DNA of 64,000 nt from assembly GCA_964187785.1 (NCBI GenBank), contig OZ076409.1:5272001-5336000 (forward strand), given 5' to 3'. Positions 12,929 to 52,655 of the stretch are shown one piece after another (position 1 is the first letter of the stretch; the number at the start of each line of letters is the position of its first letter). This DNA is from Amphiscolops sp. MND2022 (Eukaryota). A program made the translations under genes and the position numbers. A model generated the notes under the pieces. That model had not been told where the DNA came from and made no database searches. It saw nothing but the letters and a program-made list of their open reading frames with translations.

Positions 12929-12940
12929 AAACTCATTTTT

Positions 12941-12957
12941 TGGCGACCACAGAGGGA
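12941..12957 (+). promoter_or_regulatory. Primer-binding site, probably tRNA-Arg
   Basis: TGGCGACCACAGAGGGA resembles the complement of the 3' end of metazoan tRNA-Arg(TCG), TGGCGACCACGAAGGGA. It lies 15 nt after the LTR. Confidence 0.7.
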
Positions 12958-14166: not shown

Positions 14167-14412
14167 AACGACGCATTGTGGTGAAAACCGCATGCAAAAA
14201 TTCCTTCTCAGTGCTGAGAAAAGTTGAAAAACCTTGACTTTTGGCCAGTTTCAGGAGTGCCAGAGTGCATCATTAAAACCTCTAGGGCACTCAGTGTTTT
14301 CGAGACTGGGGAGCCCGCGCGCTCCTATCTTCTGTTCTTATAATACAAACAACGCATTGTGGTGAAAACCGCATGCAAAAATTCCCGTTCAGTGCTGAAA
14401 AAAGTGGAAAAA
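14167..14412. repeat. ~65-bp direct repeat pair in the Gypsy 5' UTR
   Basis: ACGCATTGTGGTGAAAACCGCATGCAAAAATTCC...TCAGTGCTGA at ~14170 and ~14351. Confidence 0.8.
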
Positions 14413-25279: not shown

Positions 25280-28200
25280 ATGGCTTATTACCCCAACAAC
25301 ACGGTACCTATTTCCACGACGGGACCTCACGCCAATAGGACTCAAGAATTGCCTGCGCGAGCGCAGAGGACTAATCAAGTCCAATACGTAGAAGAGCGAT
25401 TGAGGAACGGCCTCTCACCGTTAGCGGTAGCGGGCGTGGCCGCCCTACTCACCCAACTAGACACAATGCAGACGCTGCCTGGCGTATCCGTGTCTCTAGT
25501 GACGGAAGTAGCCGGTTACCGTCGCACCCTAACCTGCCAAAACAATGCGTGGGATGGCCACGATCTGACGCACCAGTTCCTGGATGAACGGTCCACCACA
25601 ATGCTCGGGCCCAGCCAAGGCACGAGATTCGAGCAAGAAGCCTCACTGTGTATGGTGCCTGCCAGCGTAGCAACAATGCCTCCTCCTCAGATGGTCGCAC
25701 TGCCCCCACCAGCGCCAAATCCAGTACCAATGACGCCAACTTATTCCGGTTCGCCTGCCTTTGGGACGTCATATCGAGCGCCACACATGGTACTGCAAAC
25801 CACTACTAATGCACCAGTCTCTGATCGGGAGCCCTCGGGGTCCCGGTTGCCACCCATACCCAACCCTAGAGCTGATGGGAAGGAGTGCCAGCGAACAGGC
25901 CGTAATTGTGGCTTTGCAAGCGGTGGCGAACTATCCCAACTCCACCGATTTCGTCCGTGCCGTGGAGCAGAGAATCCCTGGATTAGCCACGTATCTGCAA
26001 GCTGCTGCTCAGCCCGCGGGCTGTGACCCTCCTCCTCCCCTAGTCGAAACGGCATCTATGGATATGGAAATTGTCGCTGGACCGAGTAACAGCGCAAGCG
26101 CTGCCTCTGGTACACGAGAAGAAGCGGGGAGAAAGCGGCTGACTGAAGAAACTGTCTCAGTTACCCCAGCTGGCTCGGTAACCGAGAGCCCAACTAGTCG
26201 TCCCCCTCCCGACAAGCGCGCTGATGTACCTCGGTCCCAGCTGAAGAGTGTGGTTATCCCTAGGCCCCCGTACCGGGTAGGTCATCTAGGCCGAAGCGCT
26301 CCTCAAATGTCTTTAGCAGACGCGATCGAACAGTATGGAGATCCGGATGCAGGCTCGGAAGTGAGCTCTGTGCCCTCGGGCACCAATCCAATAGATATGT
26401 CCCTGGAGATACCTGAGACGGTGGAGGAAGCCCATCCTTCAGCCTTTCTCCCTCCATCTGACGACGTATCCGGCTCAGTAGTCACCAATGATAGCAAACG
26501 CATTTGGATGGCGGCTGAGCATCTCTACCCCAGTCAATGCGCTATCAAGAAAAGGACCCCTCCAACTGAAACGGAGCAAAAGGAGATCAACCGGACCACG
26601 ATACCGGCGCAAGTCACGCGTTCGCCCAGCCCCCGTGACGCAGACATGTCGGAGCAGGCTTGGGAACAGCGTGCTCGAGAGCAGCTGCCTATGACAACCA
26701 ACGATTACATGGCGCCCCTGCAACACAATATCACTGAGCAATTCCCCGCACGGTATGTGTTGCGAGAAGGTGAGACATGGGAGGCGAACGCCCGTTACGC
26801 TCGCAACCTGAGATCCTTGAAACCCCTATTGAAAGCAGCTCTGCAGCGTGCGCGCTACTGCATGGCAGTTGATTCCACTTGCGGAAGTGACCTCCCTATT
26901 GACAATTTAATGCCTGACGTGCTGGTGCTAACTATGCCCCTGTCTCGCTTCGCTGAGGTCGCTGAGATGGTCGGAGCCATATACGATCCAAACTTAAGAG
27001 GATCACAAAAGGAACCACCCCCACAGCGAGTGATCTTCGCCAATCTCCTGGATCACATGGCTTGCGAAGGATTGCTGCATGACCTGGACGCACTAATGTC
27101 CAATGTCCGACGACTTGGAGACATTGCTGCCCTGGTAAATGAGGTGGTCGGTGCAATGGAACGTGCCGCAGGGATCCTTCGGGGTCGTCTGGGAGCGCTC
27201 GCGCTCTTTGTATCCCCACCGGGATTCATGTATTGGCCACGAAGTCTGCAGCAGTTCGTCTACATTCTGCTGGAGGTGTGCAAGGCGCGCAGAGTCGAAT
27301 TCGCCATCTGTGCACCGAACTTGCGCGTGGACCGAGAGGACCTGCGCCCAGATACCTTATCGTATCCAGCCTTCTTTGCCGCCGTATCTAGAGCGCTTGT
27401 GGCTATAGAACGCTCGGGAAACGCCCAGCTAACCATTGACGATGCTATCCTCTATGATTATGGAATGCGGATGGGCAGACTGGCCTTTGACCTTGACGGG
27501 AACCGCACTGCCCGAGAATCTAATGTAACCGAACGAGAGGCTGTTCGCCGGTACAATTGGCTAGTGCGAAAAGATAAAGAAATCCCAGTGCGCGCAGAAT
27601 TAGCCGATCTGACAAAACAAATTGGTGCATGGCCTGCAGCGCGCACTGTCGAGAGAACAATTCCTCAGATCCACTTCGCCTCGGGAATCGAGCCCGTGAA
27701 GCTGCCTGTAGGGCTGCGATGTATCGTAGCAATAGAAGCAACAAATCTGAAAGCAGAAGTCGACGCCGCAGCCACAACTTATGCTTATTGGTACCAGACT
27801 AGGTTTGCCACTAGAACTCTGGCAGAAGTAGCTCGAGAGCTCAATTGTCCATTGGAAGCCTTCTGTACCAGTCTTGGTCTAGGATGGAACCTAGAGGTAC
27901 TAACTGCTGAGTTCTCGCTGACCTCTACGCAAACGGACAAGCTGTTAGAAACAATTGGAGAGACAACCGTCGGAGAAATACTAGCGCTCGCGCTAACGAT
28001 GGGCCCAACCAAGTTCGTAGCCGGACCACTGGCCTTGTTAGCCGACATGGTAATTGCCTGCGACCTCACCGTGTTCTACAGCTACTTGGTCCTGGCACAA
28101 GGACAACTACGCAGTCTGACCCGTTGGGGACACTTGATGACTTCCAAAGACCAGCAAGACTATTCCGCACAACTGGAGCGCATGCGTGCGTCAATCCAGC

Positions 28201-29588
28201 ACTGGCTATACTCCACCCTGGTGTTCGCCTCCGGCCTATTCGTGGGCGTAGACCAATCTCAACCACTACATAACTCCGACCAGCAGATCTCCCGGGAAAC
28301 GGCAGGATTCCCCATGCCGCAGCAGATTGCAGATCTCACCCTGGCTGAAGTAGAAGACTTTGTGGCAGCAATGGCTCCTGTCTTGGCCCCTATCTTTGGC
28401 GCAGTGGGCGTGTGCCGATGCCCAACAAAACCATTGGCAACAGCCGTCCAAGTGCACATGGTCTCCTTCAGTACCTATCTGCGAGGCCGTCCTTCACTGG
28501 CGTATCCAAGGGTAATACATGCAGTGCTGAGTGGTGAGGTGCCGCATGGGTACACGACCATAAAATCCGAAAGAGAGTTGGAGGAGAACTTGATGGGCTT
28601 GCTGCGCGCGCGCACCAGGAAAGCATGTCCTCTACCCCGAGAGCATGGACCTGTGAACTGGTATTCCGCACCTCTCAGTCTGGAAGGGGTTCCCTTTAGG
28701 TTCCCCTGGAGTCAAGAGTTCGTGAGGAAGGCGATTCGCGCCAGCACTAGTGCTGGTCCACCCGTGGATCCTTTATACTGCTTCAAATGCATCGCCTTCC
28801 CAAACCGCGATTGGAAGGAGCCGTTAGGTTGGCCCAGGGCAAAACCCGTTGGACGCGCCCCAGAGGTGTTCAACCGCCAAATCCAACACTTGGAGTCAGC
28901 CCAGATCCCAGGATGGATTGAAGGCGCTGCTCAGATTAGGCAGAGGAATCTCCAATCCCGCGTCATTCCATTCCCCAGGAAGTCGGCGTGGAAGCCTACG
29001 GGAAAGATGACTATGTCTGGAGATATGTCCATCGTCCAGCATGATGAGATAAATTCCGTGTTGGGCTCAACAGAACGAGCGAGATGGGAAGAGTACTGTC
29101 TGGAGTAGGAGATTGCAAGCTTCCCTAAATGGAAGAGAGCTTGCGAGCTCTGGAGCCAATCTGGATGGATCTCACGCCGTGTAGCACTAGCGGTAGAAGG
29201 TAGAGCAGAGATAGCGAGACAACAGGCGTTCGCGCCTACCATGCTCGCACCAACGATGGTGATGTCCTTGGATCGGCCCATCTCTCAACCGATCACCATT
29301 AACCTTCCAACCCATGACTTGGAGCCAGACCCCGTTGGCCCGTCTTCGTCGCGAACGAGCCCTCAGTCCTCGCAGCAGCAGTCCGGAGAGCACACTGCCG
29401 AATTGACTCCCAATGCAGCACTAGTGCAGCCTATTGCCGAGTTGTCGCTCCCCGAAAGTCCGTCGGACTCTGAAACAGTTGCCACAGAAGTTTCTCCCCG
29501 ACGTCGAGCGTCAGTGTCGACTGATAACCCAGAACAGAACCTAGATGATGCCACTAAAGAGCGGACCCGACGCAGTTCAGCTCAATAA
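25280..29588 (+). pseudogene. Gypsy ORF2 in env position (~1435 aa reconstructed) with an SGNH/GDSL-hydrolase-like domain; one frameshift (~25860) and one in-frame TAG (29106)
   Basis: ORFs 25280-26026 and 25761-29108 join as PPIP/TLELMGR by removing one base. ORF 29241-29588 is in frame after the TAG with no other stop. Motifs MAVDS, VLTMP, RVIFANLLDH and DLRP follow the SGNH block order. Confidence 0.7.
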
Positions 29589-30345: not shown

Positions 30346-30745
30346 TGTAACGGCAAGCTCTGGTACAGCAATATCAACCAACTTTGCAACTTCGCCATGA
30401 TTAGAAAATTTTGTCAAAAATTCGTTCAAATTTGACGTGGCACTCAAACATGCTCAAGACGAAGTACCTGCCAGAAAAAGCACCCCAAAAAAGCAGAAAT
30501 CGCCGCTCGCGACGAACAAGCACCGGAGACGACTAAAGAGACGTCCCCAACGCAGACAGAACACGGTATTGTGTCAATCTCTAGGAGATATCCATTACTA
30601 CAGTAAAGGAAACCAGTGTTCCAGATGTTCGCCTGAGTATCCCTGCGGTATCCTGTGTGGCAACTAGCGCTAGCGCTGGGAACCTGAAGTCAATTTTCAT
30701 CAAATGACTCTGAACTCTTGATTTCTTGTTGTATTTTTTGATGTG
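30346..30745 (+). repeat. Gypsy 3' LTR, first 400 bp
   Basis: Near-identical to 12182-12581 and ends in GATGTG (left copy of the Polinton TSD). Confidence 0.95.
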
Positions 30746-30879
30746 AGTAGTGTATATAATCGTATTTGACGCCAGCGCGAAGGGCGCAAGCTGGCTCACT
30801 TCGTTCGCCCCCTTGCTTCGCCATTCGCTTCGCTCATGGCTACTTCGCGCTAACGTCAAATACGATTATATACACTACT
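30746..30879. repeat. Left Polinton terminus (TIR that is itself a fold-back palindrome)
   Basis: The ~36-nt terminal arm recurs inverted at ~30843-30879. Confidence 0.9.
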
Positions 30880-31010
30880 TCTTTACCATCCTTACACCTA
30901 TCGTTAAATACGATTTCTTACACTACTTTGGTAATACTCTACTAACCATGTTTTAGAATAAAGCTGAAATTCTTTTGAACTGCTAAATTTCTATGAATTT
31001 CACTCTGTAA

Positions 31011-31209
31011 ATGTAAATATTGATTTTCAAAAGAAATTTTTTCAGACTGCTAATTAGTTGAGAAGGTAGATGTAAATATTGATTTTCAAAAGAAATTCTT
31101 TCAGACTGCTAATTAGTTGAGAAGGTAGATGTAAATATTGATTTTCAAACGAAATTCTTCCAGACTGCCAATTAGTTTAGAAGGTAGATGTAAATATTGA
31201 TTTTCAAAA
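31011..31209. repeat. 59-bp tandem repeat, ~3.4 copies
   Basis: ATGTAAATATTGATTTTCAAA at 31011, 31070, 31129 and 31188. Confidence 0.9.
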
Positions 31210-31445
31210 CAATTAAAAAGAAACGAGAAAAACTTGAGCACTGAAGTGAATTTAATTACACCAAAAATCAATAAAAACACCCAACATTTTCAAAAATTAT
31301 CTCCACTTCTACTGGGTTTTAAGAGATGGGGTTTTCACCATTGTGATCCTCTCTTCCATACGAGTAAAAAGAGATGTCGATGAGCAAAATCCGCCGAGTA
31401 GTTAACAAAACCCATCACCAAACGCATTCATTTGAAACAAGATAA

Positions 31446-31775
31446 AATCAAAAAATCTAATTTGACCATGCTGGTTATTTGACCATGCTAGTTATTTGAG
31501 CATGTGCGATTTTTGAATTACGCGGGCTCCTAGGTATGGATAAGCGGATAGCAAACCATTGCACGAATCAAAAAATCTAATTTGACCATGCTAGTTATTT
31601 GAGCATGTGCGATTTTTGAATTACGCGGGCTCCTAGGTATGGATAAGCGGATAGCAAACCATTGCACGAATCAAAAAATCTAATTTGACCATGCTAGTTA
31701 TTTGAGCATGTGCGATTTTTGAATTACGCGCGCTCCTAGGTATGGATAGGTGGATAGCAAACCATTGCATGAATC
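31446..31775. repeat. ~103-bp tandem repeat, 3 copies
   Basis: AATCAAAAAATCTAATTTGACCATGC...GCAAACCATTGCA at 31446, 31566 and 31669. Confidence 0.9.
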
Positions 31776-31833
31776 CTCCAAACATTCATTTGTATTATTA
31801 ATTACAACTCAGTCGCCACACTCTCTTATCAAC

Positions 31834-33374: not shown

Positions 33375-33785
33375 ATGAATTTAACATTCAAAGAATTTGT
33401 CAAGAAATATGGATTAAAAAACGAAGCAACTTCTAATGTAAAAATAAAAGGTATACTAGACATAATAAATAGACATATTCATGATTCGTGTAAAGTGTAC
33501 ATGAGAGATGATAAATTTACAACTGATTCAGGAATTGTAAATTTACACCCCTCAGTGGGAACACACTGGGTCATGTTTATTAAGGAATATTACTTCGATT
33601 CATATGGCTGCCCACCTCCAATAAACATACTCAACTATCTTAATATTGGTCAATACTCAGAATATCAAATTCAAAAAAATGATAGCTATTGCGCAGCGTA
33701 TTGTTTATATGTTTTATATCTTACACAAAGTATAGGCTTTAAAAATGCAGTTTTAAGTTTATACTATCAGACATTTTGTCATTAA
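33375..33785 (+). CDS. Adenain-like maturation cysteine protease
   Basis: GTHWV...YFDSYG...QIQ...SYCAAYC (His, Asp, Gln, Cys). Confidence 0.9.
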   Translation: MNLTFKEFVKKYGLKNEATSNVKIKGILDIINRHIHDSCKVYMRDDKFTTDSGIVNLHPSVGTHWVMFIKEYYFDSYGCPPPINILNYLNIGQYSEYQIQKNDSYCAAYCLYVLYLTQSIGFKNAVLSLYYQTFCH

Positions 33786-35552: not shown

Positions 35553-36473
35553 ATGTATTCAATACATAATCGTGATGATTTAGAAAAATTAAAAAAATTG
35601 CAAAAAACAAAATCTTCACTCCACAAAGAAAGATTAAAAGAGAAACTTGGGAAGCAAGACTTTCATTACGATATGGAAGAAGTTTTTGAACCCGTTACTG
35701 AAAACCAGAAACAAAACCAAACTAAACAACAAGAACTTTCTGAAAAGCAAATACAAGCGCTACGTGATTCTACTCAAACTACAACACAAGCAATCGAAAA
35801 TCAGGCAAGAGCAATAGAACACAGTAGTGATATTTTAAATAAAAATTTACAAAAATCTATTAAAGATGCTAATTCCAACCAAGTAGACAGTTCAATTGTT
35901 AAAACAGTTTCCAACCTTCTCAATGACAAAAACAAAAGTCAATTTAGTTTAGAACCTGTTTTAGGAAGTTCAAATTTCTTCACAATTAACCACACTGATC
36001 CTCAACTAGTACAAATCAAAGGTTCAACGATGACTTTCCAGAATGGTAACACATATAATTTAAATGATCCGGATCTTTCATCTTTTATAACTAATGCACA
36101 AATAGATAAAAAAATACAAAACGAGAATCTTATTTATAATTTTTTAAAAGATATGAAATATGAACTTAATTATGGAGATAAAAAATCAAAGAGGTATTAT
36201 TTCATTAAACATTTGATTAATCAATACACATATCAACAATCCCAATCGGGAAGTGGATTAAATCAGTATATCTTCCTCCCATCTGACCCAGATGAGCTTG
36301 TAGATCAACTTAAACTAATCGTGTTAGAAAAAGTAGGAGGAAATGATAATCCTATGCTGAGCGAACAAATCATAGCAATTGCTGATAAACTTTTACAATA
36401 CCAATGCATTACAACAAATCAACATCAAAACATTGTTTCAGCTTTTACTAAAAAGGATCAGTTTGTGGATTAA
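35553..36473 (+). CDS. Polinton conserved (probable core) protein, 306 aa
   Basis: Coiled coil, then GSGL followed by LPSDPDELVDQLKLIVLEKVGGN, a motif common in Polinton ORFs. Confidence 0.75.
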   Translation: MYSIHNRDDLEKLKKLQKTKSSLHKERLKEKLGKQDFHYDMEEVFEPVTENQKQNQTKQQELSEKQIQALRDSTQTTTQAIENQARAIEHSSDILNKNLQKSIKDANSNQVDSSIVKTVSNLLNDKNKSQFSLEPVLGSSNFFTINHTDPQLVQIKGSTMTFQNGNTYNLNDPDLSSFITNAQIDKKIQNENLIYNFLKDMKYELNYGDKKSKRYYFIKHLINQYTYQQSQSGSGLNQYIFLPSDPDELVDQLKLIVLEKVGGNDNPMLSEQIIAIADKLLQYQCITTNQHQNIVSAFTKKDQFVD

Positions 36474-37269
36474 AGATTTTATACTCTGGATTAGATTCAT
36501 TGCACAGTTTATACTTACATCCGTTTTTATCTTCTAGCCTGTTTATTAATAAATAGTTGTATTTTTCTTTCCATGCCTCCCTGCACAAACTTTTAAATTC
36601 ATCATAAGACATATCAAAACCTGCAATATCTCTGTATATATTTTCTACATCTTTCAATGTTTGTTGAAATAAAATTATGATATTACTATTATTGCGTATG
36701 GTGCGTTTAGGCAAATCGAAATATGACTGTGATAAATAATAAACATCTAAATCATTATGTCTTCCCCTAGTAAAAAATGGATCTATTAATTTCTGATTCG
36801 AGTCTAACATATCATCAAATACAACACAACAATTTTGAAAATCTTGTATTGTTCTATCTTCTAGATCGTCTTCCACTGAAACGTCTTCTAGTTGTATGTT
36901 CTCGTATTGTTCCGGAGATGTAGTTATGATTTTTATTTGTTGTTCTGGGTTATCCAAGCGAATTAATTGTAATTTGTTTAATAACAAAAAAGTCTTACCA
37001 CAAAATGAAGGACCAACTATTAATGTTCGATTTAATGCATCAGCCTCAATTGTATTATTTGTATCAGTTTTATGAATGTTTTTTATATGCTTTGACAAAT
37101 ATGTTTTATTGAATTCACGGTTACAAAATTCACACCTCATCTTCCTATTAAAACAACTAATACACTTAATATATACATCACCATTTCTATATTTATAGAA
37201 ATCTTCTTCAGATTTAAAAATATTACACCCTTTACAGATTTTTTTATTACCACAATTTAAACTGTTCAT
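36448..37269 (-). CDS. A32/FtsK-like genome packaging ATPase with N-terminal zinc fingers
   Basis: Walker A GPSFCGKT, Walker B VVFDD, FTRGRH..LSQ; C2H2 finger CEFC..HIKNIH. Confidence 0.93.
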   Translation of the reverse strand: MNSLNCGNKKICKGCNIFKSEEDFYKYRNGDVYIKCISCFNRKMRCEFCNREFNKTYLSKHIKNIHKTDTNNTIEADALNRTLIVGPSFCGKTFLLLNKLQLIRLDNPEQQIKIITTSPEQYENIQLEDVSVEDDLEDRTIQDFQNCCVVFDDMLDSNQKLIDPFFTRGRHNDLDVYYLSQSYFDLPKRTIRNNSNIIILFQQTLKDVENIYRDIAGFDMSYDEFKSLCREAWKEKYNYLLINRLEDKNGCKYKLCNESNPEYKIFNPQTDPF

Positions 37270-37299: not shown

Positions 37300-37505
37300 T
37301 CACTAAGACGATTTTTTGTCACTAAGACCCACCTCTTAGTGAATAAGAAACACTAAGAATCACTAAGAGTCACTAAGACCCACCTCTTAGTGAATAAGAA
37401 ACACTAAGAATCACTAAGAGTCACTAAGACCCACCTCTTAGTGAATAAGAAACACTAAGAATCACTAAGAGTCACTAAGAGTCACTAAGACCCAACACTT
37501 AGTGA
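37300..37505. repeat. 51-bp tandem repeat built from CACTAAGA units
   Basis: Units at 37320, 37371 and 37422, plus a variant at ~37483. Each unit contains the hairpin CACTAAGA-CCCACC-TCTTAGTG. Confidence 0.9.
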
Positions 37506-37540: not shown

Positions 37541-38392
37541 ATGAACCTGAAACAAAAAATAGCTAAAGAAATATTCTCTCCTGTAGTTAAAAAATTTGAC
37601 CGCATCCAAATACAAACTCACTATAAAGATGAGTGTTGGAGTATTGATCTGATAGACCGATCTAGCTTAGCAAAATACAACAAAAACTACAAGTTTATTT
37701 TTACAATAATTGACAATCATACTAAATTTGCATGGGCGATTCCTCTTAAAGATAAATCAGGAAAAAGTACAACGACTGCATTCAAGAAACTAATAGAAAC
37801 TAGTAAAAGAAAACCTGAAAAAGTGTGGTCGGATAGAGGTAAAGAGTTCTATAATAAAACATTTTTGGATTTTCTTAAACAAAATGAAATACAAATTTAT
37901 TCAACTCACTCAGATTTGAAAGCTGTTTTTGTTGAACGTTTCAATAGAACATTATTAGATCTTATCAAAGAACCGATGTATATTGAAGGTAAAGCTTATT
38001 GGTTGAATCATATTAACAGTGCTTTGGATAAGTATAATAATCGTGTGCATACCACAACCCGCATGACACCGTTTGAAGCTAGTAATAAACCAATAGATCC
38101 ACCTACTTTTGTTAATAAACCGAAACAACCCAAATTTCAAGTGGGAGACTATGTAAGAGTTCCTGATAAAAGGAACATTTATTCAAAAGGCTATACAACA
38201 AATTGGAATAGAGAACTTTTTAAAATACAAAAAATTAATCCAACTAACCCCATAACCTATACTTTATAAGACGAAAACAACGAGCAAATAGCAGGAAAAT
38301 ATTATGAACAAGAACTTTTAAGAAGTGTATTCAACTTTGAATCTAATAACAAAACGTTAGAAAGTATGAATATTTTCCATCAGTTTGAGTAA
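37541..38392 (+). pseudogene. Retroviral-type (rve) integrase with in-frame TAA at 38267
   Basis: WSIDLID, WSDRGKEF and VERFNRT form the DDE core. After the stop the frame continues DENNEQIAGKYYEQEL, the usual Polinton integrase tail, to TAA at 38390. Confidence 0.92.
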
Positions 38393-39701: not shown

Positions 39702-40931
39702 ATGGAATTATTTTCTTTGAAAAATAAATATGTTCTCGATAATCCAATTCATAAAATTGATTTTATTAAATACTCGCCTAGTAGTTTAGCTACAATCAAC
39801 AACAATAATTCAAATATTTCCATCATTTTCCCAAGAGAAGATGCTTATATTTGTTTACAAATCTCATACATTAGTCTAGAATTTGAAGTTCTTAAAAACG
39901 ATAACACACGCTACGTAGACAACGACCAAATAAGCTTGGTCAACTTTGGGCCTGTTGCTTTATTTAGTGAAGCTAAACTTGTGACATCATCAGGAAAGCA
40001 TCTTGAGAAAGTTGATAACCTACACCCAGTATGTTTAATGTACAAGCTTTTGACTAGCAACCAACAAACAAGTCAATTGATGTACGGATTTGAAGAATCA
40101 GAAAACACCAGGCGATTAGAATTAACAAACCACAAAACAGAAAAAGGAACCTTTTTTGTTAGAATAAAACTAAAAGACTTGTTTGGATTTGCTGATCAAG
40201 AAAAAATAACTTACGGATTGGGTTATTCTCTGACATTAAAACGTAATAATAATAACGACCCTATCATCAGGGACAACGGTGTAGATGCTGCAAAAATAGA
40301 TATAAAAGATATTGCTTGGCACATTCCACACTATGTACCCAGTATGGAAAACCAGCAGCTTGTCCTTAATCAAATATTAGATAAAGACCCAACCGAGTTG
40401 TATTATATAGAACGAACTGTCTTTAGAAAAGATGTTAACACCAATAATAATTGGACATTTGAATTAGTCAACAGTGGAGAATCGACACCAACATACGTGA
40501 TAGTTGGATTTCAAGCTAGAAATAAAATTGATTCACAAACACATAACAACTCAACATTCGATCGACTTTCGGTTAGTAATGCAGTTTGTAAAATAGGATC
40601 AGAAAAATATCCCGATGATGGAATAGAATGTGACTACGACCGCGACAAATACGATCAAGCTTATTATGAAATCGAAAACTTCTATAACTTACATTCTGAA
40701 TCTAATCTACTCAATCCGTTTATCAGTTTGCACGAACTCCGAACGAGTTACAATTTTTATGTATTTGACCTATCTAAGCAAAAACCACCTATAGCATCTC
40801 AACCTATTAGATTAGAATTTAAATTTAGTGCTGCTTTTGGTGTAGCAGATTATGTAGCTTATGCCCTTGTACTAACACCCAAGTTAATAAGTATTAGTAG
40901 TGACGGACAAAGACACTTTGATCTTTTATAA
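39702..40931 (+). CDS. Major capsid protein (double jelly-roll, hexon-like), 409 aa
   Basis: Beta-rich, with motifs IKLKDLFGF, PTYVIVGFQ, IGSEKYP, FYVFDLSKQ and IRLEFKF, and a size typical of Polinton MCPs. Confidence 0.87.
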   Translation: MELFSLKNKYVLDNPIHKIDFIKYSPSSLATINNNNSNISIIFPREDAYICLQISYISLEFEVLKNDNTRYVDNDQISLVNFGPVALFSEAKLVTSSGKHLEKVDNLHPVCLMYKLLTSNQQTSQLMYGFEESENTRRLELTNHKTEKGTFFVRIKLKDLFGFADQEKITYGLGYSLTLKRNNNNDPIIRDNGVDAAKIDIKDIAWHIPHYVPSMENQQLVLNQILDKDPTELYYIERTVFRKDVNTNNNWTFELVNSGESTPTYVIVGFQARNKIDSQTHNNSTFDRLSVSNAVCKIGSEKYPDDGIECDYDRDKYDQAYYEIENFYNLHSESNLLNPFISLHELRTSYNFYVFDLSKQKPPIASQPIRLEFKFSAAFGVADYVAYALVLTPKLISISSDGQRHFDLL

Positions 40932-42289: not shown

Positions 42290-43534
42290 ATGAACACAAC
42301 GAATACCAAATATTGTGAAGTGTGTGATAAACACATTCACACAGCATCCTTCTCGAGACATGAGAAATCTAAAATTCATTTACACAATATTGGCGTTGTA
42401 CCGGGAGACCCTATACAACGAAGGGCGCGATCGGTCCCAACACTAAAACAATTAGCGAGAGCTAAAGTCAATCTCTCAGAAAAAGAGTTGGCAAAACATA
42501 TGATAAATCCATACTACTTCTCTAAAAGATATGAACCTCAATATGATGTTAATCTTGATCAACACCACCCCAAACACTTAAATAGTAAGATAACTGTCAA
42601 ACCTAAATATGATCTCCCTATTGAATTGCTCGATCTGAATAATATCTTCAAAGAAATGTCAGCAATATATGCTAGGCTAATTGAGCAATATAAATTCAAA
42701 TATCAAGTTGTCTTCTCAGTTATTTTCGATAAGGAGACTCGAGATGAGTTAGAACAGTATGTTAGTTTGGAGGTCAATCAGAGTTTAACTTGGAATGATA
42801 TTGAAAAGTATGATCTAGAAGGAAAAACAAATGCATTGATTGAAAATCTGGAGATGAAAGATAGTGGTTGGAGATTCTGTAAAATTGCATCGATGACTAT
42901 ATACTTTTATAAAACTGTTGAACTGAATGGTAGCAGTTATGTTAAAATACCTCTTAGAAGCGCTGCTATTTTAAACATTGAAAATAATGATAAGTACTGT
43001 TTTCTATGGAGCATCTTAGCTCACCTTCATCCTTGTGAGAATTCTCACCCTAATAGAGTTTCAAACTATCGAGAATATTTTAGAGAATTGAAAACAGATG
43101 GATTGGAATTCCCTTTTAAAACATCAGATGTTTCTAAATTTGAAAAGATGAATAATCTAGCTATTAATATATTTGAGTTACAGTTCTATCAAGAGGGGGA
43201 AAAGTGGAAACATAAATTGATTCCTATTGAGGTTAGTGAGAACAATTCAGAAACAGTGATTGATTTGGTGATATATAAAAATCACTATGCCCTCATTAAA
43301 AAACTTCATGTATTCTTAGGAAAAAGGGATTCAAAATTTGTTTGTCGTCGATGTCTAAGTTGCTTTACAAATGAAAACGTTTTGGTGAAACATACTGAAA
43401 GATGTAAGCAACAAGATATCACAGCTATCAGAGTTAGCAAGGATAGTCATTTAATGTGGAAGAAGCACTTTCATAAGATCCCACTATATTTCAGGATCTA
43501 TGGTGATTTCGAATGTAATAATAAAAGAGAATAT
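42290..43534 (+). pseudogene. polB: Protein-primed DNA polymerase B, 5' part (Zn finger, terminal-protein/OTU-like region, start of exonuclease)
   Basis: GSSYVKIP..NIENNDKYCFLWSIL..NHYALIK; IYGDFE (ExoI). Interrupted by the BEL element. Confidence 0.9.
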
Positions 43535-44445
43535 TGTAACGGCTGCTTGCCCTTATCCTGCGCTGAGGCTTGACAAACTTTACGCCGCCCTGATCCGTTG
43601 CTTAGTGCTGTGGACCGTCACTAAACAATTCCTGGTTTTCGTGTTTTAAAGGACTGTATCTTTTAGCTGATGGGTCCGATGTGACCCGTAGGAATCTCCA
43701 GCGATTCCTCTTTGCACTGATTTGGATCCGATGTGATCCTGCACACACTTCCCTCACTGTATCTTCACGCGCTCCGGCTCTCGGACTATGAGAGTAGCTA
43801 CTTAGTCGCTCTGACTCTAGCGAAAAGTTGTGAAGATTGAGAAGTTGATTAATTAGTCTCTTGGTCCTAAGACCCAACTTGACTATAGCTATACAGTGGA
43901 GAAAATCTCTATCTAATAATGGTATAAACGTGGTTTACAATTCTACAGTAAATATAAGTTGAAATATGTGGTATAAATAAATGACATTTGAGTGAATTAT
44001 TAAAGTTATTGGCTATGTAAACAAAGCACATGGTGGTTTTTGCATGTTGATTTGGTGGGCTCTAAAGCATGTTTACACAAGGTAAATATCACTAATTCCA
44101 ACAGAGTTACATTCTAATGTGGTCATATGGGTAAATAACAAAGTTTACATTTTTGGTTCAATGACCTTGATAACTACACATGTGAGGGGTAAAGAAGGTT
44201 ATAATGGGTGAATGACCTTGAAACTTAGCCGGTGTGTTCGTGTTAGGTATCTGCGTATGTGTGCCAAGTTTCATGGCTCTATGACTAAGAGACTTTGAGA
44301 AAACCCATTTGGGGGGGGTTTTCCCCATTTGCAATGTGAGGTTTTTCTTCAAATTTTCATCTAAGTTTTTTGGAGTTTAAGTTTTGTTTCTCAACCAGCA
44401 AGTTCTGAATTGAGTTTCTCTGCCTTCTGATGACTGGCGCCAACA
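43535..44445 (-). repeat. BEL 3' LTR
   Basis: TG...CA ends; differs from 49112-50023 by about two substitutions and one G in a G-run, by eye. Confidence 0.95.
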
Positions 44446-47400
44446 TTGCCGGCCCTGTTTTTCTCCCGAAAAACACTTTCGTAGAACATGGGTGCCAGTT
44501 TCACTACTGGTCTTTTCAGTTTTCCATCTTCAGTTTTCACCAGCGCTGATCTCACTCGCCCATCGCTTCCATGGTAGACTTCCAACACTCTACCCATCTT
44601 GTAGAGTGCTCTTTTTACATTCTCATCCACTATCCAAACCAAATCATTGACTTCTAGTTGTCTAACTTCTTCGTTTTTCCATTTTCCAAAGAATTCAAGT
44701 TGCATCATCATTTCTTCCCGTGATACAGCCGGCCCTATGAAAGGCCCATTTTCCAAGTTTGTTGTTGTTTGTTCTTTTGAAGAACCCATTCGCGTCTCCA
44801 TCAGGGATATTTCGCTTGCAAATTCATCTGCCTTCATATTTGCATGTAGGATGCCATTTGTATTCAACTGAGCGCTTTCGTTCGTTCCATGTAATCGAAT
44901 TAAGATAGGTTCAAACTTCCAAGCTCGTTTCTCGAATAGCTTGCTGTGGCCAGTGTTTAGTTGAGGTGGCACGTTAGGGTTAGCTTGTGCCACTGCATCC
45001 ATTCCCGAGTTTCCATTACCCAACCAGTTGTTACTATTTTCACTGTCGTTTGGAATAATTTTGTCCAGCAGTTTTTCATTCAAGCCAACGTCATGTTTTC
45101 TACCAAATAACACCTTTACGGATTTTGTTTCATTACTTGCGTTCTCTTCAGCCGGTTTGTCTTGTTCCAACAAACCACCAAGGGGTCTTCGATATATCGC
45201 TTTGCCTCGTGGAACTTCATGAAGTTCAATTTGGCACTCATTCACGAATCCAATTTCTCTGTCCAATTGAGAACACCTTTTTCCTTCTTCAAGTGTTAGA
45301 GTGTTGACAGTAACATTCAGTGCTTGCAATTGAGTTGAATACTTCTCTTTGACAAGCTGTTGTACAGATGCGACACCTATATTTTGTTTCAGCAAATCAA
45401 GCGTTACACAATTTTTTTTCGAAGTTTGAAAGTTTGATGTGATTGCGACACGTTCATGTTCGTTCTTTTCTTCTACAATTGAGAAACCCATGTTTTCGTC
45501 TTGTTCGACTATCATATGGTCACTCACAGCTAGGTGCATTTCGTCTTTCCAAATTTGCTTGATTTCCAAGAGGAGGGGTTTAGTACTGACTTCTTGCCAG
45601 TTTCTTTCTACAACGAATATGTTTGGTGAGTTCTCAGAATATTCCTTGGACATTTCGGATACGCTGCAGTGGGAAGTATACGATTCCATGCCCCACCGAG
45701 TTTTCATCTGATCCACCAATGGATCCACATCTGCAAAAACCAAACTTTCAGTGGCGAACTTCGCAGTTTCTTGTTGAGGCAAGGGTCCACTGAGCATCCA
45801 TCCCAACTTCGTCAAAACGGCCCAAGGTTTTGACTTTCCACATTTTCTATACCCAATTGCTCTATGCAAATGATAACAATCTTGGCCCAAGATAACTTTG
45901 ACATCTCCCAAGTTGATGGTAGAATCTTTCAAAACTGACAGGTGAGGATATGTTTCCTTCAATTTCTTGAGGTTGTACGTGCGATTTCCTGCGTTTACGT
46001 TGGGATGACTATAGGCAATGATATCTTCTTTGACTTTTCCTTGTTGATCTCCAATCCTGACCCGCAGTCGTTTGCTACTAATATCTGACGCACCATGAAT
46101 CCCTGCAACATTCAAATCCACTGGCTGTCCCATCAGATTTAGCGCTTTCATCAGGCTCTCGTCCACAAAGGACAGGCTTGCTCCAGAGTCGCACAAAGCG
46201 AACGTTTTCACAGTTTTGCTCCCACTCCCTATCGTTACTGGAATGACTGGAAGCACTCCACTGCTTCTCATTGAGGACAGGTTTGAGACCTCTTCGACAT
46301 TTTCAACACTTTGCTTCTGTTCCTCGTTCTTGTAAGGTCGGTGTAGCAATCGGTGATGAGGTTTTCCGCAACCAATGACGTCGCAGAGTCTACCAGAGCA
46401 ATTTCTCATCTGATGTGCGTCTGACAAGCATTTGAAGCACAGCTTCAGTTCTTTCGCCTTTTGTCCTCTTTCTTCGACGTTCATCTTCTTGAATTTCTCA
46501 CATTTCCATATCGGATGTTTGCCATCTTTCAACGCACACTCTCGCTGGTATTTTGAGTTGTCACTGGCTGTGTCTGGTGCTGATGTTGCAAACGTAGAAC
46601 CTTCGGCCTTTTCCTTGTAGCTCGTTTTTGCGCGATCAGCATTTAGATTCGAATACAATAGCAATTCATCTTGAACATCTGCTATATCATTGAGCCACTC
46701 ACTGAACACAGCGAGTCCAGGTTGATACAGGTTCATTTGCTTGACATAAGTGAGCCACTTCGTTTTCGTGTCGAGTGTTAACTTCCTTGTGGCACTGCCT
46801 AAAACTCCTTCTGAGTTTAGGTCTCCCACGTAGTTGAATTGTGTCAAAACATTCACGCAACTCGACACTATTCTCGCAAACTTGATCAATGCGGCTCCAT
46901 CATAAGGTTTCATCGGAGGGAACGAATAGATTCGCTTCAACTGGGCGTTCACAACCATTTGAGGTTTTCCAAAGTTTCGAACTAGAACGTTCCACGCCAC
47001 ATTGTACATCTCAGCAGTGTAACCCAGACCAGCAATAGCCTCTTTCGCTTTGCCCGTGACCATTGTTTTCAGATGGTTCATTTTTACACTGTCGTCTATG
47101 TTCGCTGCATGGACGGTTGCTTGGAATAGTTGTGACCACTCTGGCCACTCCAATGGGTCACCTGAGAAGTCTGCCAACTTCAATTTTGGCAAGCTGGATC
47201 TGATGAAATAGTCATCTCTCGCATTTGACACTATGTTATGCCCTTGACGAGGCAGATACGGCTTCTGCGTGTTCTCAAGCTGTGGCACTTGAAATGCACC
47301 ACTCGGGATGCCTCCAAACGTAGGCGGTAACCGATTCAGGTCTGCACCGAGAGTCATCGACGGCTTCGATGAGGCGAATTTCACTTCTGGTTGTGCTGTT

Positions 47401-48755
47401 GCTCTTTGACTGCCAACATCTATGACAGTCTTTGTTCTGTCCTTTCCAATATCTCGCACAGCGGTCTCTGTGGACATGACTGGTTTCAATGATGACTTCA
47501 AATCCCTCACCTGCGCGGAGCCTTGTCCTCCATGAGTTGATCGTATTGAAATCACTGGTGCTGAGATGGACGTTTGCTGGTAACCTGGTGGCACGTTAAT
47601 CGGCGATGCCACGTTTTCAGCTTCTTCGGTCTTGTCCATCCAATCTGAGACTTTCGTCAGATTGTCGTCTGGTGACTCGACTGGTGAAATACTTCGCAAG
47701 CTGGTGCCACAACTACTTGAAAATTTCGCCAGTTCTATTTCCTTTTCTGCAATTCTGGCCTTGCGGGCCACCTCACCTTGCAAGTCTGCTATTTCCATTT
47801 CCTTTTGTTTTGTTTCTCTTCCCAGTTTCTCCAGGCGGGATTGCAGTTCTTCTTGCTCCTTCAGAGCTTTTAGCTCCAAGTGTAGAACTCGTCTTGCGCT
47901 TGATGTTTTTGAAATCACAGACGTCTTGTTGCTTTTGGCTCTTTCACTTCGCGAATGTATGCTCAATTCCTCTATTGGCAATGATCTAGCTCCATTTCTT
48001 GGCTCTTGGCTGTCTTCCGCGTTGTGACCATCATGTTCTTTTTGCTCATCGTCTGGTTGCGGCTCCTTTTGTGGCGAAGTGCCATTTTTACTTGATTTGT
48101 CTGCGGCTACGCTTGCGCGAACGTCTGCTAGTCTTTGTTCAGCGTCTTCAAGACTTCGCAAAATGGCTCCTCCTTCTCCTGTCTTCAGCAGATCTTCAAT
48201 TTTCGTTTTAATGTCAGACCGTTTCTGCAGCAATTCTTGACATGCTGCAGCATAATCTTCTTCGTCGACAATTTTGCCATCTGCGATTGAATCTTCCCGC
48301 AACTTTTTGTTGCTATCCATTAGTCTATCAATAGCACGTTTCTTTTCGTCAAGATCCAAGTAATTTAGTATCTGATTTTCGTCTTGCAATGCTGACATCA
48401 GCATTTGTACCCTTCCAACGCTAGAGCTTTGCTGCTGCAACTCAGCCAATCGGCTCTGCATTTCTTTGTTCACTATTGAGAAGATTTCGGGTATCTGCGG
48501 TTGATACTTGACTTTGATCGCATTTTCGACTGCCTTAATGAGCCGATCCCTCCTGTTTATGGCATCTGTTCGTCTTAGCAGTAAATCTGCTATCTGCTTG
48601 TCGTCAACATTGCTAGCTAGGTTCTCATCAATTTCTTTGACAGTCTTGCCGTGTTCAACAGCTGCAGTCCAATAACTCAACGTTTGGGCTTTGTCAGCAG
48701 AGTTCTTCAGAAAGTTTTCGATTTTGTTGATATCGAACCGTTTTGGTTCTGCCAT
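44391..48755 (-). CDS. BEL Gag-protease polyprotein with integrase C-terminal tail but no RT/RNase H/IN core (1454 aa)
   Basis: LPKLKLADFSGDPLEW (BEL gag), three Cys/His knuckles, ALCDSGAS protease, and the terminal GRVLEVYHGSDGRVRSALVKT..RPVVKL. No YxDD motif. Confidence 0.9.
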   Translation of the reverse strand: MAEPKRFDINKIENFLKNSADKAQTLSYWTAAVEHGKTVKEIDENLASNVDDKQIADLLLRRTDAINRRDRLIKAVENAIKVKYQPQIPEIFSIVNKEMQSRLAELQQQSSSVGRVQMLMSALQDENQILNYLDLDEKKRAIDRLMDSNKKLREDSIADGKIVDEEDYAAACQELLQKRSDIKTKIEDLLKTGEGGAILRSLEDAEQRLADVRASVAADKSSKNGTSPQKEPQPDDEQKEHDGHNAEDSQEPRNGARSLPIEELSIHSRSERAKSNKTSVISKTSSARRVLHLELKALKEQEELQSRLEKLGRETKQKEMEIADLQGEVARKARIAEKEIELAKFSSSCGTSLRSISPVESPDDNLTKVSDWMDKTEEAENVASPINVPPGYQQTSISAPVISIRSTHGGQGSAQVRDLKSSLKPVMSTETAVRDIGKDRTKTVIDVGSQRATAQPEVKFASSKPSMTLGADLNRLPPTFGGIPSGAFQVPQLENTQKPYLPRQGHNIVSNARDDYFIRSSLPKLKLADFSGDPLEWPEWSQLFQATVHAANIDDSVKMNHLKTMVTGKAKEAIAGLGYTAEMYNVAWNVLVRNFGKPQMVVNAQLKRIYSFPPMKPYDGAALIKFARIVSSCVNVLTQFNYVGDLNSEGVLGSATRKLTLDTKTKWLTYVKQMNLYQPGLAVFSEWLNDIADVQDELLLYSNLNADRAKTSYKEKAEGSTFATSAPDTASDNSKYQRECALKDGKHPIWKCEKFKKMNVEERGQKAKELKLCFKCLSDAHQMRNCSGRLCDVIGCGKPHHRLLHRPYKNEEQKQSVENVEEVSNLSSMRSSGVLPVIPVTIGSGSKTVKTFALCDSGASLSFVDESLMKALNLMGQPVDLNVAGIHGASDISSKRLRVRIGDQQGKVKEDIIAYSHPNVNAGNRTYNLKKLKETYPHLSVLKDSTINLGDVKVILGQDCYHLHRAIGYRKCGKSKPWAVLTKLGWMLSGPLPQQETAKFATESLVFADVDPLVDQMKTRWGMESYTSHCSVSEMSKEYSENSPNIFVVERNWQEVSTKPLLLEIKQIWKDEMHLAVSDHMIVEQDENMGFSIVEEKNEHERVAITSNFQTSKKNCVTLDLLKQNIGVASVQQLVKEKYSTQLQALNVTVNTLTLEEGKRCSQLDREIGFVNECQIELHEVPRGKAIYRRPLGGLLEQDKPAEENASNETKSVKVLFGRKHDVGLNEKLLDKIIPNDSENSNNWLGNGNSGMDAVAQANPNVPPQLNTGHSKLFEKRAWKFEPILIRLHGTNESAQLNTNGILHANMKADEFASEISLMETRMGSSKEQTTTNLENGPFIGPAVSREEMMMQLEFFGKWKNEEVRQLEVNDLVWIVDENVKRALYKMGRVLEVYHGSDGRVRSALVKTEDGKLKRPVVKLAPMFYESVFREKNRAGNVGASHQKAEKLNSELAG

Positions 48756-48790
48756 CTCTTCTCCTCTTGGTTGAACTCAGTTCCCAAAGT

Positions 48791-48982
48791 CACAATAGCC
48801 CAAACTCCCAGAGACACAAAAGCCCAATCTCCCAGAGACACAATAGCCCAATCTCCCAGAGACACAATAGCCCAATCTCCCAGAGACACAGTTGCCCAAT
48901 CTCCCAGAGACACAGTAGCCCAATCTCCCAGAGACACAGTAGCCCAATCTCCCAGAGACACAGTAGCCCAATCTCCCAGAGA
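48791..48982. repeat. 24-bp minisatellite, 8 copies, in the BEL 5' UTR
   Basis: CACA(A/G)TAGCCCAATCTCCCAGAGA repeated 8 times. Confidence 0.95.
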
Positions 48983-49092
48983 CACAAAATCAGCAACTCC
49001 AAGATCCAGACACTTGTTCTTCTTGGGCAATCTTCTCAGCTGTCCACCAACAAGTCGTCTTCTTCTAGTCCGGGTCGTCCACCAAAGAGTTG

Positions 49093-49109
49093 TCCGGGTC
49101 GGCGGACCA
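49093..49109 (-). promoter_or_regulatory. BEL primer-binding site, tRNA-Tyr-like
   Basis: Minus strand TGGTCCGCCGACCCGGA, 2 nt from the LTR; resembles TGGTCCTTCGAGCCGGA. Confidence 0.65.
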
Positions 49110-49111
49110 AA

Positions 49112-50023
49112 TGTAACGGCTGCTTGCCCTTATCCTGCGCTGAGGCTTGACAAACTTTACGCCGCCCTGATCCGTTGCTTAGTGCTGTGGACCGTCACTA
49201 AACAATTCCTGGTTTTCGTGTTTTAAAGGACTGTATCTTTTAGCTGATGGGTCCGATGTGACCCGTAGGAATCTCCAGCGATTCCTCTTTGCACTGATTT
49301 GGATCCGATGTGATCCTGCACACACTTCCCTCACTGTATCTTCACGCGCTCCGGCTCTCGGACTATGAGAGTAGCTACTTAGTCGCTCTGACTCTAGCGA
49401 AAAGTTGTGAAGATTGAGAAGTTGATTAATTAGTCTCTTGGTCCTAAGACCCAACTTGACTATAGCTATACAGTGGAGAAAATCTCTATCTAATAATGGT
49501 ATAAACGTGGTTTACAATTCTACAGTAAATATAAGTTGAAATATGTGGTATAAATAAATGACATTTGAGTGAATTATTAAAGTTATTGGCTATGTAAACA
49601 AAGCACATGGTGGTTTTAGAATGTTGATTTGGTGGGCTCTAAAGCATGTTTACACAAGGTAAATATCACTAATTCCAACAGAGTTACATTCTAATGTGGT
49701 CATATGGGTAAATAACAAAGTTTACATTTTTGGTTCAATGACCTTGATAACTACACATGTGAGGGGTAAAGAAGGTTATAATGGGTGAATGACCTTGAAA
49801 CTTAGCCGGTGTGTTCGTGTTAGGTATCTGCGTATGTGTGCCAAGTTTCATGGCTCTATGACTAAGAGACTTTGAGAAAACCCATTTGGGGGGGGGTTTT
49901 CCCCATTTGCAATGTGAGGTTTTTCTTCAAATTTTCATCTAAGTTTTTTGGAGTTTAAGTTTTGTTTCTCAACCAGCAAGTTCTGAATTGAGTTTCTCTG
50001 CCTTCTGATGACTGGCGCCAACA
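49112..50023 (-). repeat. BEL 5' LTR
   Basis: Direct repeat of 43535-44445, adjacent to the PBS. Confidence 0.95.
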
Positions 50024-50028
50024 AATAT

Positions 50029-52359
50029 TCTAACATAGGTAATAAAACCACAAACATTTTCAGACAAAATCCAATGTGTAATGGATTTTACATAGTATCT
50101 GAGATGGATAATGTTCTACAGTCTGGATGGCATCTCTCGCCCTTTGGAGAGAATAATGTTGAATGGTTTGTTAATGAAGTCATAAAGATTGAGAATAAGA
50201 TGAATTTCTATTTTAAGAATACAAAGAAAGAGATTATGATGACTCAAGAAGATGAGGAAGATTTTAAGAATAGTACTCATTGTTGGTTCTGTGAACTTCC
50301 CTTAGATGGGAGAGCTGTCAGAGATCATTGTCATCTGACTGGTAGGTATCGAGGGGCTGCACATGAAAAGTGTAATATAAATGTGAAACAGAAACAGAGT
50401 AATTTCATACCATTCGTGTTTCACAACTTCAGTAACTACGACTGTCACTTGTTCTTTAAAACATTGATTGATACAAAATCAGATAATGTTCCCCTTCATG
50501 TCATACCCAAGACAAATGAGGAATATATATCAATTTCATATGGTTGTATTAGATTTATAGATTCATAGAGATTTTTATCAAGTAGTTTAGATGGGTTGGT
50601 TAAAACAGTTGATGAGTTGACAATTCTGAAGAGAGAGTTTCCTGATAATTGGGAGCTGTTGAGTAAGAAGTTGGCGTACCCATATGAATATTTTAAATCT
50701 CTTGATGATTATCAGTTGTCAGTTAAAGATCTTGTAAAAGAGGATTACTTCAGTAGATTGAAAAATGGATATCCTCAAGATAGTGAGATTCAGAGAACAA
50801 ATGAAATCATTGAAACTTTTAAGATTAAAACTGGAAAGGAGTTGACTGAGTTGTATTTGAAAACTGATGTTGTTTTGTTAGCAGATGTGTTTGAGAAGTT
50901 CATAAAGGTATCATTAAACGAATTTAAAATCAATCCGTTATATTGTGTTAGTCTTCCTGGATATACTTGGGAATGTGGATTGAAATATACTGGGATTAAT
51001 TTGCAAACACTTCAAGATAAAGATATGATCTTAATGTTAGAGAATAATATTAGAGGTGGGATTTCATCTGTTATGGGGGATAGATATGTTAAATCAGATG
51101 AAAACAAAAAGATTTTATATATTGATGCTAATAATCTATATGGGTGGGCAATGAGTCAGTATTTGCCATATGATGATATAAAATTTGATGGTAATGTTAA
51201 GTTGGAAGATATATTAGATACACCTGATGATAGTGAGGTTGGGTATTTTGTTGAAGTTGACTTGAAATATCCTGAGGGGATAAGAGAGAAGACTGTGAAC
51301 TTCCCATTCTGTCCAGATAATAAGTTTTCACCTCAAGATAAGTTTACTGAGTATATGAAAAAAATGAAGCAGGATAGTTATGCTAAATGTAAAAAGTTAA
51401 TATGTGATTGGACTGACAAGAAAAAGTATCTGATACATTATCGAATGTTGAAGTTTTATGTGAGACATGGTATGATTGTTGAGAAAGTTCATGAAGTGAT
51501 TTCTTTTAAGCAGAGTAAGTGGTTGGAGAAGTACATTGATTTCAATACTCAGAAAAGAAATAGGACGAAAAATGATTTTGAGAAAGATTTTTACAAACTA
51601 TTAAACAATGCGTTCTATGGAAAGACAATGGAGAATGTGCGAAATAGAACTAAGATCGAGTTCATTAAAAAAGATGAAGAAGAGAAGATGGTGAAGTGGC
51701 AATCTAAGTTGACGTTTAATGGGATCCATAAGTGTTATGAGAAATATGATAGTTTCACGTTTAAGATGAATGAGGTTCTGATGGATAAGCCAATATATCT
51801 TGGATTTAGTGTGTTAGAGTTGAGCAAGTTATTGATGTATGAAACGTACTATGATAAATTTCAACCTTACTTTGGGAAAGAGAATATTCAACTTCACTAT
51901 ACCGACTGTGACAGCATGGTATTAAGTATTAAAACTGAGGATATCATTAACGACTTACAAAATCTCAAAGATTTATTTGATTTCAGCAATTTAAACAGAG
52001 AGCATCAATTGTTTAGTGATGAAAATAAAAAAGTAGTTGGTAAATTTAAAATTGAAACGCCTGGAAGTATTTGGATTGATGAATTTGTTTGTTTGAGAAG
52101 TAAAGCATATTCTTATAGATGTGGAGGTGAAAGTTCTAACAAACTAAAAGGTATCTCAAAATCTCAGAGTAAGAATATTAAATTTGAAGAGTATTACAAC
52201 TGTTTATTTGGGGGTGATTATCAAAGAGAATGTGAAAATTTTGTAATTAGATCTATAGATCATGATATGTTTCTTCAAAAGGTTACAAAGAATTCTTTAT
52301 CTGCATTTGATGAGAAGCGATGTTATTTGAATAATATTGAGAGTATCCCTTGGATGTAA
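50029..52359 (+). pseudogene. polB: Protein-primed DNA polymerase B, 3' part, with in-frame TAG at 50566
   Basis: Removing BEL plus one TSD restores ..NKREYSNIGNK... Contains the EndoVII-like CWFC..RDHCHLTG..AH..CN, HNFSNYD, FIDS*RF, YIDANNLYG, KLLNNAFYGK and YTDCDS. Confidence 0.93.
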
Positions 52360-52462
52360 TGTGAATATCCTTGAGTTTGAGTAATAACTAAATAGTATAG
52401 AAAGGGGGATTTGATATTAACTTGAAGGGTGAGCAATTGAGTGATGGGGCGAAGCGGAGCGG

Positions 52463-52649
52463 AGCAGTGTATATAATCGTATTTGACATTAGCGCGAAGG
52501 TCACCATGAGTGGAGCGAAGCGAAGCGAATGGTGAAGCAAGTGGGGGAGGTTGAAGAGTGAGCAGCTGAGCGAAGCGAGGCTGTGAGCGATGAGGCCGAG
52601 CCACGCTTGCGCCTTCGCGCTGGTGTCAAATACGATTATATACACTACT
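52463..52649. repeat. Right Polinton terminus (TIR, also self-palindromic)
   Basis: AGCAGTGTATATAATCGTATTTGACATTAGCGCGAAGG at 52463 pairs with CCTTCGCGCTGGTGTCAAATACGATTATATACACTACT ending at 52649. Confidence 0.9.
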
Positions 52650-52655
52650 GATGTG

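Follow-up and report, generated by a model that had tools for sequence, protein, structure and literature searches.

A Polinton with branched fold-back ends that keep their shape on the 3′-terminal strand while the sequence changes

A Polinton present in the 64,000-nt stretch of Amphiscolops sp. DNA analysed here (hereafter, the window) ends on both sides in a branched fold-back, and its terminal inverted repeat (TIR) is this palindromic unit itself. The two ends have diverged in sequence while conserving their shape, which suggests that each end acts as its own replication start or as a protective cap. Our preferred reading, to which we assign a probability of roughly 0.55 on the sequence data, is that the TIR is selected for the shape of its 3′-end single strand, which would serve as a local single-stranded origin or cap for protein-primed replication.

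Gene content, termini and target site duplication (TSD) all identify the element as a Polinton. It spans positions 30746–52649 (21,904 bp) and is flanked by the 6-bp TSD GATGTG; the empty site, with one GATGTG, was found in the partner long terminal repeat (LTR), at position 12576. Since the host LTRs match at 741 of 745 positions and the LTRs of a nested BEL/Pao element are nearly identical (909 identities, 3 mismatches and 3 gaps), the Polinton insertion must be young. It follows that the differences between the two Polinton ends are older than the insertion and were already present in the mobile element. The region 12182–52999 is nested to three levels: the Polinton lies in one LTR of a Gypsy-type retrotransposon, and the BEL/Pao element (43535–50024, TSD AATAT) lies in the Polinton polB. 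Downstream of gag-pol, the Gypsy element carries two long extra ORFs (23584–25002, 472 aa, and 25809–29108, 1099 aa) that have no Pfam match.

The features of the Polinton are listed in Table 1. The P-loop ATPase is probably the packaging ATPase, as judged from the gene content of Polintons. The capsid cluster nearest to the window capsid is 99% identical to it and has 80 members, which points to an abundant Polinton family. In the window copy, polB is broken by the nested BEL/Pao element and also, one or more times, between positions 50568 and 51025; the polymerase includes an endonuclease VII-like domain (50008–50568) with DH-H and C-N motifs. The ORF at 33375–33785 has no Pfam match, and by its protease-like motifs we take it to be a candidate cysteine protease. 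Tandem repeats are found near the left end (59 bp, three copies, 31007–31212; 103 bp, three copies, 31477–31785) and between the ATPase and integrase genes (51/10 bp, 37318–37495).

Table 1. Features of the Polinton and of its two fold-back ends, in window coordinates
Feature	Position	Strand	Remarks
Left TSD, GATGTG	30740..30745	+	Identical 6-mer at 52650-52655; single copy at empty site
Left fold-back unit	30746..30879		134 nt, Y shape; structured strand is minus, 3′-terminal
Left outer arm	30746..30782	+	37 nt, starts AGTAGT
Left branch B	30786..30816	-	Symmetric 31-nt hairpin, C-GAA-G tip, one tandem G·A motif
Left branch A	30820..30840	-	21-nt hairpin, GCGAAGC tip, one tandem G·A motif
Left inner arm	30843..30879	-	Inverted copy of terminus
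Third, decayed copy of terminal 25-mer	30903..30927	-	Left end only; 4/25 mismatches, 0/1000 shuffles
P-loop ATPase	36448..37269	-	Weak AAA_14 match, below cut-off
rve integrase	37541..38269	+	PF00665, E 8.6e-13
Double-jelly-roll (DJR) major capsid protein	39702..40931	+	PF21738, E 1.4e-19
Protein-primed family B polymerase (pPolB) gene	42290..52359	+	Exo and Pol motifs; homologues carry PF03175
Right fold-back unit	52463..52649		187 nt; structured strand is plus, 3′-terminal
Right inner arm	52463..52499	+	Position 3: AGC instead of AGT
Right branch A	52501..52535	+	+5 nt per side relative to left branch A
Right branch B	52537..52610	+	74 nt; 25 consecutive WC/G·T/tandem G·A pairs below GCGAAGC tip
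Right outer arm	52613..52649	-	Ends ACTACT
Right TSD, GATGTG	52650..52655	+	Matches left TSD

Each end consists of a 37-bp stem crowned by two branch hairpins, A and B, with the same topology left and right. Over these 37 nt the arms are 95% (left) and 92% (right) complementary. A preliminary description of this DNA had noticed that the left unit opens and closes with the same 25-mer in inverted orientation and that a third, decayed copy follows it; both observations were confirmed. Within 3 mismatches the terminal 25-mer has four matches in the window, against 0.00 expected. Inside the right end a third copy gave no significant match (197 of 1000 shuffles were as good), and extended homology there was likewise not significant (201 of 2000 shuffles). 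The right end had been credited with the same design and a longer loop: the motif is indeed found at 52463 (plus strand, 1 mismatch) and at 52625–52649 (minus strand), but there is no plain loop at either end, its place being taken by the two branch hairpins. Folding of both ends, as that description had proposed, gave z-scores of −10.4 (left) and −10.0 (right), with none of 200 shuffles equally stable. The figure of only ~50 nt shared between the ends proved wrong. The 134- and 187-nt units are homologous as wholes, and their full-length alignment contains 127 identities against 6 mismatches and 55 gap positions; the ungapped outer match between them comprises 38 nt.

Full pairing of the branches is limited to the 3′-terminal strand, where it involves tandem G·A pairs, G·T wobbles and mini-hairpin tips of the form C-GAA-G. 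Two stem mismatches recur at left and right, and on this strand both are G·T. Tandem G·A pairs are stable in DNA. Helices closed by a GNA loop were scored by a rule, set after inspection of the sequence, that counts Watson–Crick (WC), G·T and tandem G·A pairs below the loop. The best such helix of the right 3′ strand has 25 pairs (0 of 2000 shuffles) and is the longest of the window on either strand; the left 3′ strand has helices of 9 and 7 pairs, the 9-pair run being reached in 2 of 2000 shuffles. Under the same pairing rule, no GNA-closed helix was found on the 5′ strands of the two ends. GCGAAGC occurs twice in the left and four times in the right end, always on the 3′ strand, and is absent from the 21.5-kb body; this enrichment was matched by 9 of 5000 (left) and 0 of 5000 (right) shuffles. 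Directly inward of the right inner arm, this 3′ strand has further GCGAAGC/GCGGAGC motifs at 52433–52462. According to the accessible part of PMC13037366, d(GCGAAGC) is a nuclease-resistant DNA mini-hairpin known at replication origins, and the related GCGAAAGC is much more stable as DNA than as RNA. Several ends that have no fold-back likewise show a lower free energy of the 3′ strand, so the energy measure alone is not specific.

It is very improbable that the structure works as RNA, whether as the 3′ UTR of the polymerase transcript or as a small RNA. The right unit does follow polB on the same strand at a distance of 100 nt, and G·U and tandem G·A pairs stabilise RNA too. However, the left end has the same design without an adjacent outward gene, and in three other elements described below (L075, L136 and G004:C67) the structured strand lies upstream of polB, in antisense orientation to it. 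Moreover, no Rfam match was found, and mini-hairpins of this class are described as much weaker when made of RNA (PMC13037366, accessible part).

When the 49 aligned WC pairs of the left and right folds are compared, three are altered on both sides to another WC pair and one is broken. The double changes are located at stem position 26 (G-C left, A-T right), in branch A (G-C versus A-T between left and right ends) and at the tip of branch B (A-T versus G-C). Three double changes among seven randomly placed changes have a P of about 1.2e-4, or 1.8e-3 without the branch B tip pair, whose alignment is less certain than that of the others. The broken pair belongs to the stem of the right end; this end has a mismatch 3 nt from the 3′ end. 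The insertions that lengthen the right end are symmetric: branch A grows from 11 to 21 nt by 5 nt on each side, and the arms of branch B from 14/14 to 35/36 nt.

Double changes have to be read with the caveat that arm-to-arm conversion can produce them without selection. On such grounds the fold-back might be a neutral by-product of a snap-back or template switch that duplicated the terminus, its arms being held similar by arm-to-arm conversion, or the copies might be only duplex protein-binding sites. We consider this quite unlikely. The base at position 26 is common to the arms within each end, a decayed third copy is present, and fold-backs are scattered on a quick PolB tree with incomplete labels, all of which a neutral origin would accommodate; it leaves unexplained the non-palindromic, strand-specific G·A/G·T helices and the symmetric insertions, as well as the double changes of the branches and the mismatches retained at both ends. 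There is a negligible chance that the design was created by assembly. The window ends are known from the assembly alone, but their four arms differ in a patterned way, the TSD is clean and the empty site is present, and unrelated assemblies share the design; the one-off rearrangement or artefact that the preliminary description had kept in view fits these data poorly. We conclude that the ends are real and structurally constrained.

Could the two ends simply pair with each other? An end-to-end duplex amounts to about −131 kcal/mol versus −96.6 kcal/mol for both local folds summed. The panhandle can thus still form and is thermodynamically the more stable state, and the local folds would win over it on kinetics only. 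Of the earlier proposal that each end forms its own duplex origin without a panhandle, what stands is that each single-stranded end can self-structure; the panhandle is nevertheless the stronger of the two.

Under the preferred reading, the 3′-terminal strand would become single either by displacement in strand-displacement synthesis or by exposure at excision. Its last 37 nt would pair with the inner copy, and the two mini-hairpin-tipped branches would complete the Y. Folding locally, the Y could immediately restore a duplex copy of the terminal origin and shield the 3′ end. Terminal protein and pPolB would then prime opposite the 3′ end and copy arm, head and body, with no 22-kb panhandle being awaited. 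We infer that the fold forms in vivo and that it functions as a protein-primed origin or as a cap.

Fold-back ends recur in other pPolB elements. The scan covered 191 polymerase-bearing loci, many of them redundant and most without an end, as well as stretches of 16 contigs, whole or partial. Nineteen ends of 12 families were scored uniformly with 40 shuffles each, and a terminal fold-back was defined by at least 15 of the last 20 nt being paired and z ≤ −5. Such ends were found in 6 of 12 families including that of the window, that is, in 5 of 11 other pPolB families. Two of these, L075 and L136, were discovered by the fold-back search itself, each with one end and without a TSD; among the nine families found by other routes, three have a fold-back. 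L075 ends in a Y-shaped fold-back of 137 nt, with a GGA loop and tandem G·A on the 3′ strand, and L136 in one of 129 nt, with a GAA loop and G·T on the 3′ strand. The fold-backs of G004:C67 (159 nt, at both ends) have tandem G·A on the 3′ strand, and those of the G002 C224/C288 family (62 nt) a C-GAAA-G tip, also on the 3′ strand; L003 has a weaker fold-back with no strand preference. No terminal fold-back was found in G002:C47, G005:C217, L013, L020/L044, G003:C2 and G002:C493; where precisely the last two end is uncertain. L020/L044 are the closest relatives with a visible end (55% PolB identity). With 6 of 12 families, including these closest relatives, lacking it, the fold-back is dispensable for the group. 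The quick PolB tree leaves out three short rows and treats L003 and the C224/C288 family as plain. On it, the four elements that bear a fold-back label are spread without clustering (4 changes for these 4 rows).

Sequence patterns recovered few further cases. The exact 22-nt terminal motif had no match in viral, metagenome and genome contigs. A terminal 9-mer fold-back pattern gave five matches in viral contigs, two of them with real stems (L017 and L018, which may or may not be Polintons), while none of the 15 matches to the pattern AGTAG..GAGCGRAGCGA..CTACT has the stem. Viral-contig searches with the capsid alignment and with the L075 PolB revealed no relatives.

Several of the contigs scanned deserve description in their own right. 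G004:C67 holds a complete Polinton (3805–23212, L239/L240) with near-perfect 159-nt hairpins at both ends, bulges in the same orientation and ACACAC termini; it is inserted in an ATT repeat and contains an internal duplication of ~4.7 kb. The 18.5-kb viral contig L018 ends in a 205-nt fold-back (966–1170) with 48-bp arms. In L020, a 200-nt AGTAG...CTACT hairpin (2516–2715) lies ~600 bp past the Polinton-like end; it is probably part of another small element, its flanks being complementary, not duplicated. G002 (L157–L163, L222–L291) is a prokaryote-labelled bin with 98 Polinton polymerase matches, i.e., with many eukaryote-like contigs, and the same holds for several other bins. Five of its polymerase-bearing contigs (C606, C315, C493, C106 and C288) have inverted repeats of 1.7–3.7 kb and are possibly near-palindromic Polinton derivatives.

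The left end had also been regarded as a ready-made mini-element. This idea found no support: the window contains no free-standing 130–190-bp copies with a 6-bp TSD of their own, and all 19 inspected hairpin sites of the G002 analogue continue into an element body.

The comparison with parvovirus hairpins made in the preliminary description was borne out for the Y shape, whereas the flip/flop that it predicts was not seen in the ends examined. The two ends of the window element share one orientation, and so do those of G004:C67. In the multi-copy G002 family, for which 19 of 22 sites were inspected, every complete end points the same way (16 of 16). A fixed orientation of the ends fits protein priming and not hairpin transfer. 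It therefore speaks against parvovirus-like self-priming, in which the folded 3′-OH is extended directly and a nuclease, e.g., an endonuclease VII-like domain, opens the hairpin later. We regard self-priming as rather unlikely, although the geometry of the fold sets a paired 3′-OH on an internal template, the polymerases of the window element, L075, L136 and G004:C67 all have an Endonuclease_7 domain, and the same model was proposed, in the available text of 10.64898/2026.07.28.741278, for the terminal palindromes of Halocafeteria virophages and PLVs. The mismatch close to the right 3′ end argues against it, and no Pfam family of HUH Rep or SF3 helicase was found among 13 scanned Polinton ORFs or pieces of them, several without any match. 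In addition, endonuclease insertions in pPolB were read as homing or intein relics (10.1101/2024.03.18.585575, available part).

A fold-back or cruciform may also mark the ends for excision or integration, with the base of the stem bringing the host/element junction next to the inner junction and offering a cut site to the integrase or to a structure-specific nuclease. The stem terminates exactly at the terminal nucleotide in the window element, L136 and G004:C67, the third copy of the motif suggests repeated protein sites, and the standing model of Polinton transposition, as given in the accessible part of PMC4196379, needs a single-stranded intermediate. A cruciform, however, treats both strands alike, yet the branches pair on the 3′ strand only, and half of the families integrate without a fold-back. 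We consider this explanation unlikely; a role in excision or integration and one as protein-primed origin are compatible and do not exclude each other. For the group at large we would suggest, tentatively and with more doubt than for the window element, that in a sizeable, polyphyletic share of pPolB Polintons a locally folded 3′ strand (GNA mini-hairpins, sheared G·A, G·T) could be the origin for terminal protein and pPolB, convergent with Streptomyces telomeres. A 20-kb “racket” intermediate would then be unnecessary, and the fold may mark the excision point.

For the way in which a Polinton leaves the chromosome and resumes replication as a single strand, there is so far a model that lacks direct support. 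A terminal unit of 134–187 nt whose shape is conserved on one strand is a small, synthesizable substrate for folding, binding and priming. The window element shares with Polintons/Mavericks of the Beta-PolB (“adintovirus”) type the AGTAGT...ACTACT termini, the 6-bp TSD, pPolB, rve integrase and DJR capsid protein. The (AGT)2 terminal motif is that of Polintons in the accessible part of PMC8097293, and the TIR length, in an element of 21.9 kb including the nested insertion, is within the ranges given there (46–1,447 bp) and in the available text of 10.1101/2023.08.22.554363 (100–1,500 bp). Unlike usual Polinton TIRs, that of the window is palindromic and branched, and its copies differ by 55 gap positions yet keep their shape. 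The words “hairpin” and “palindrom” are absent from the accessible parts of PMC8097293, 10.1101/2023.08.22.554363, PMC8363768 and 10.1101/2024.03.18.585575, and “hairpin” from that of PMC8502044. In the literature searched, which did not extend to subscription papers, Repbase and preprint supplements where such ends may be described, pPolB Polintons are nowhere reported to have fold-back ends that are branched and strand-specific.

Among publications on Polintons, Mavericks and virophages that deal with hairpins, palindromes or rackets, one direct precedent was found. In July 2026, terminal palindromes were described as proposed replication hairpins in virophages of Halocafeteria seosinensis and in PLV subtype 4 (10.64898/2026.07.28.741278). 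In the available text of that source, these palindromes lie, as in the window, at the TIR tips beside the TSD; they are near-perfect and short (52 nt in subtype 5; search gap ≤10) and occur preferentially in protist elements without pPolB. The window, in contrast, has branched folds of 134 and 187 nt with strand-specific non-canonical pairing in a pPolB Polinton, and it extends the terminal palindromes of protist virophages and PLVs to this group.

In adenovirus and PRD1, the displaced strand regains a duplex origin by pairing of its inverted repeats in a panhandle. The same is possible in the window element, where the duplex can also form locally, within 134–187 nt; panhandles themselves are reported to lack direct evidence (PMC11886824, accessible part). 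The 3′ strand of Streptomyces telomeres, which are replicated with a terminal protein, forms “rabbit ears” whose G·A-closed GNA loops bind the priming protein (PMC4513846 and PMC5449611, accessible parts). As in the window, the 3′ strand folds its terminal palindrome back onto an inner copy, with two GNA-loop hairpins between them, and both systems are tied to protein-primed synthesis, presumptively so for Polintons. Streptomyces differs in being bacterial, in having an internal origin with patching of the 3′ overhang (Tap/Tpg), and in using the Tap primase versus a family B polymerase; the rabbit-ears form is, according to the same sources, not the one used in its end repair, which counts against the preferred reading. 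The likeness is one of analogy only, with no homology. Autonomous parvoviruses and densoviruses, like the window element, have single strands whose 3′ end folds into a stem topped by two ears. These viruses self-prime and need an HUH Rep and an SF3 helicase. Lacking a match to either in the scanned ORFs and any flip/flop in the ends seen, the Polinton ends resemble parvovirus 3′ ends without membership in that group. The comparison points to convergence among Polinton ends, Streptomyces telomeres and parvovirus ends.
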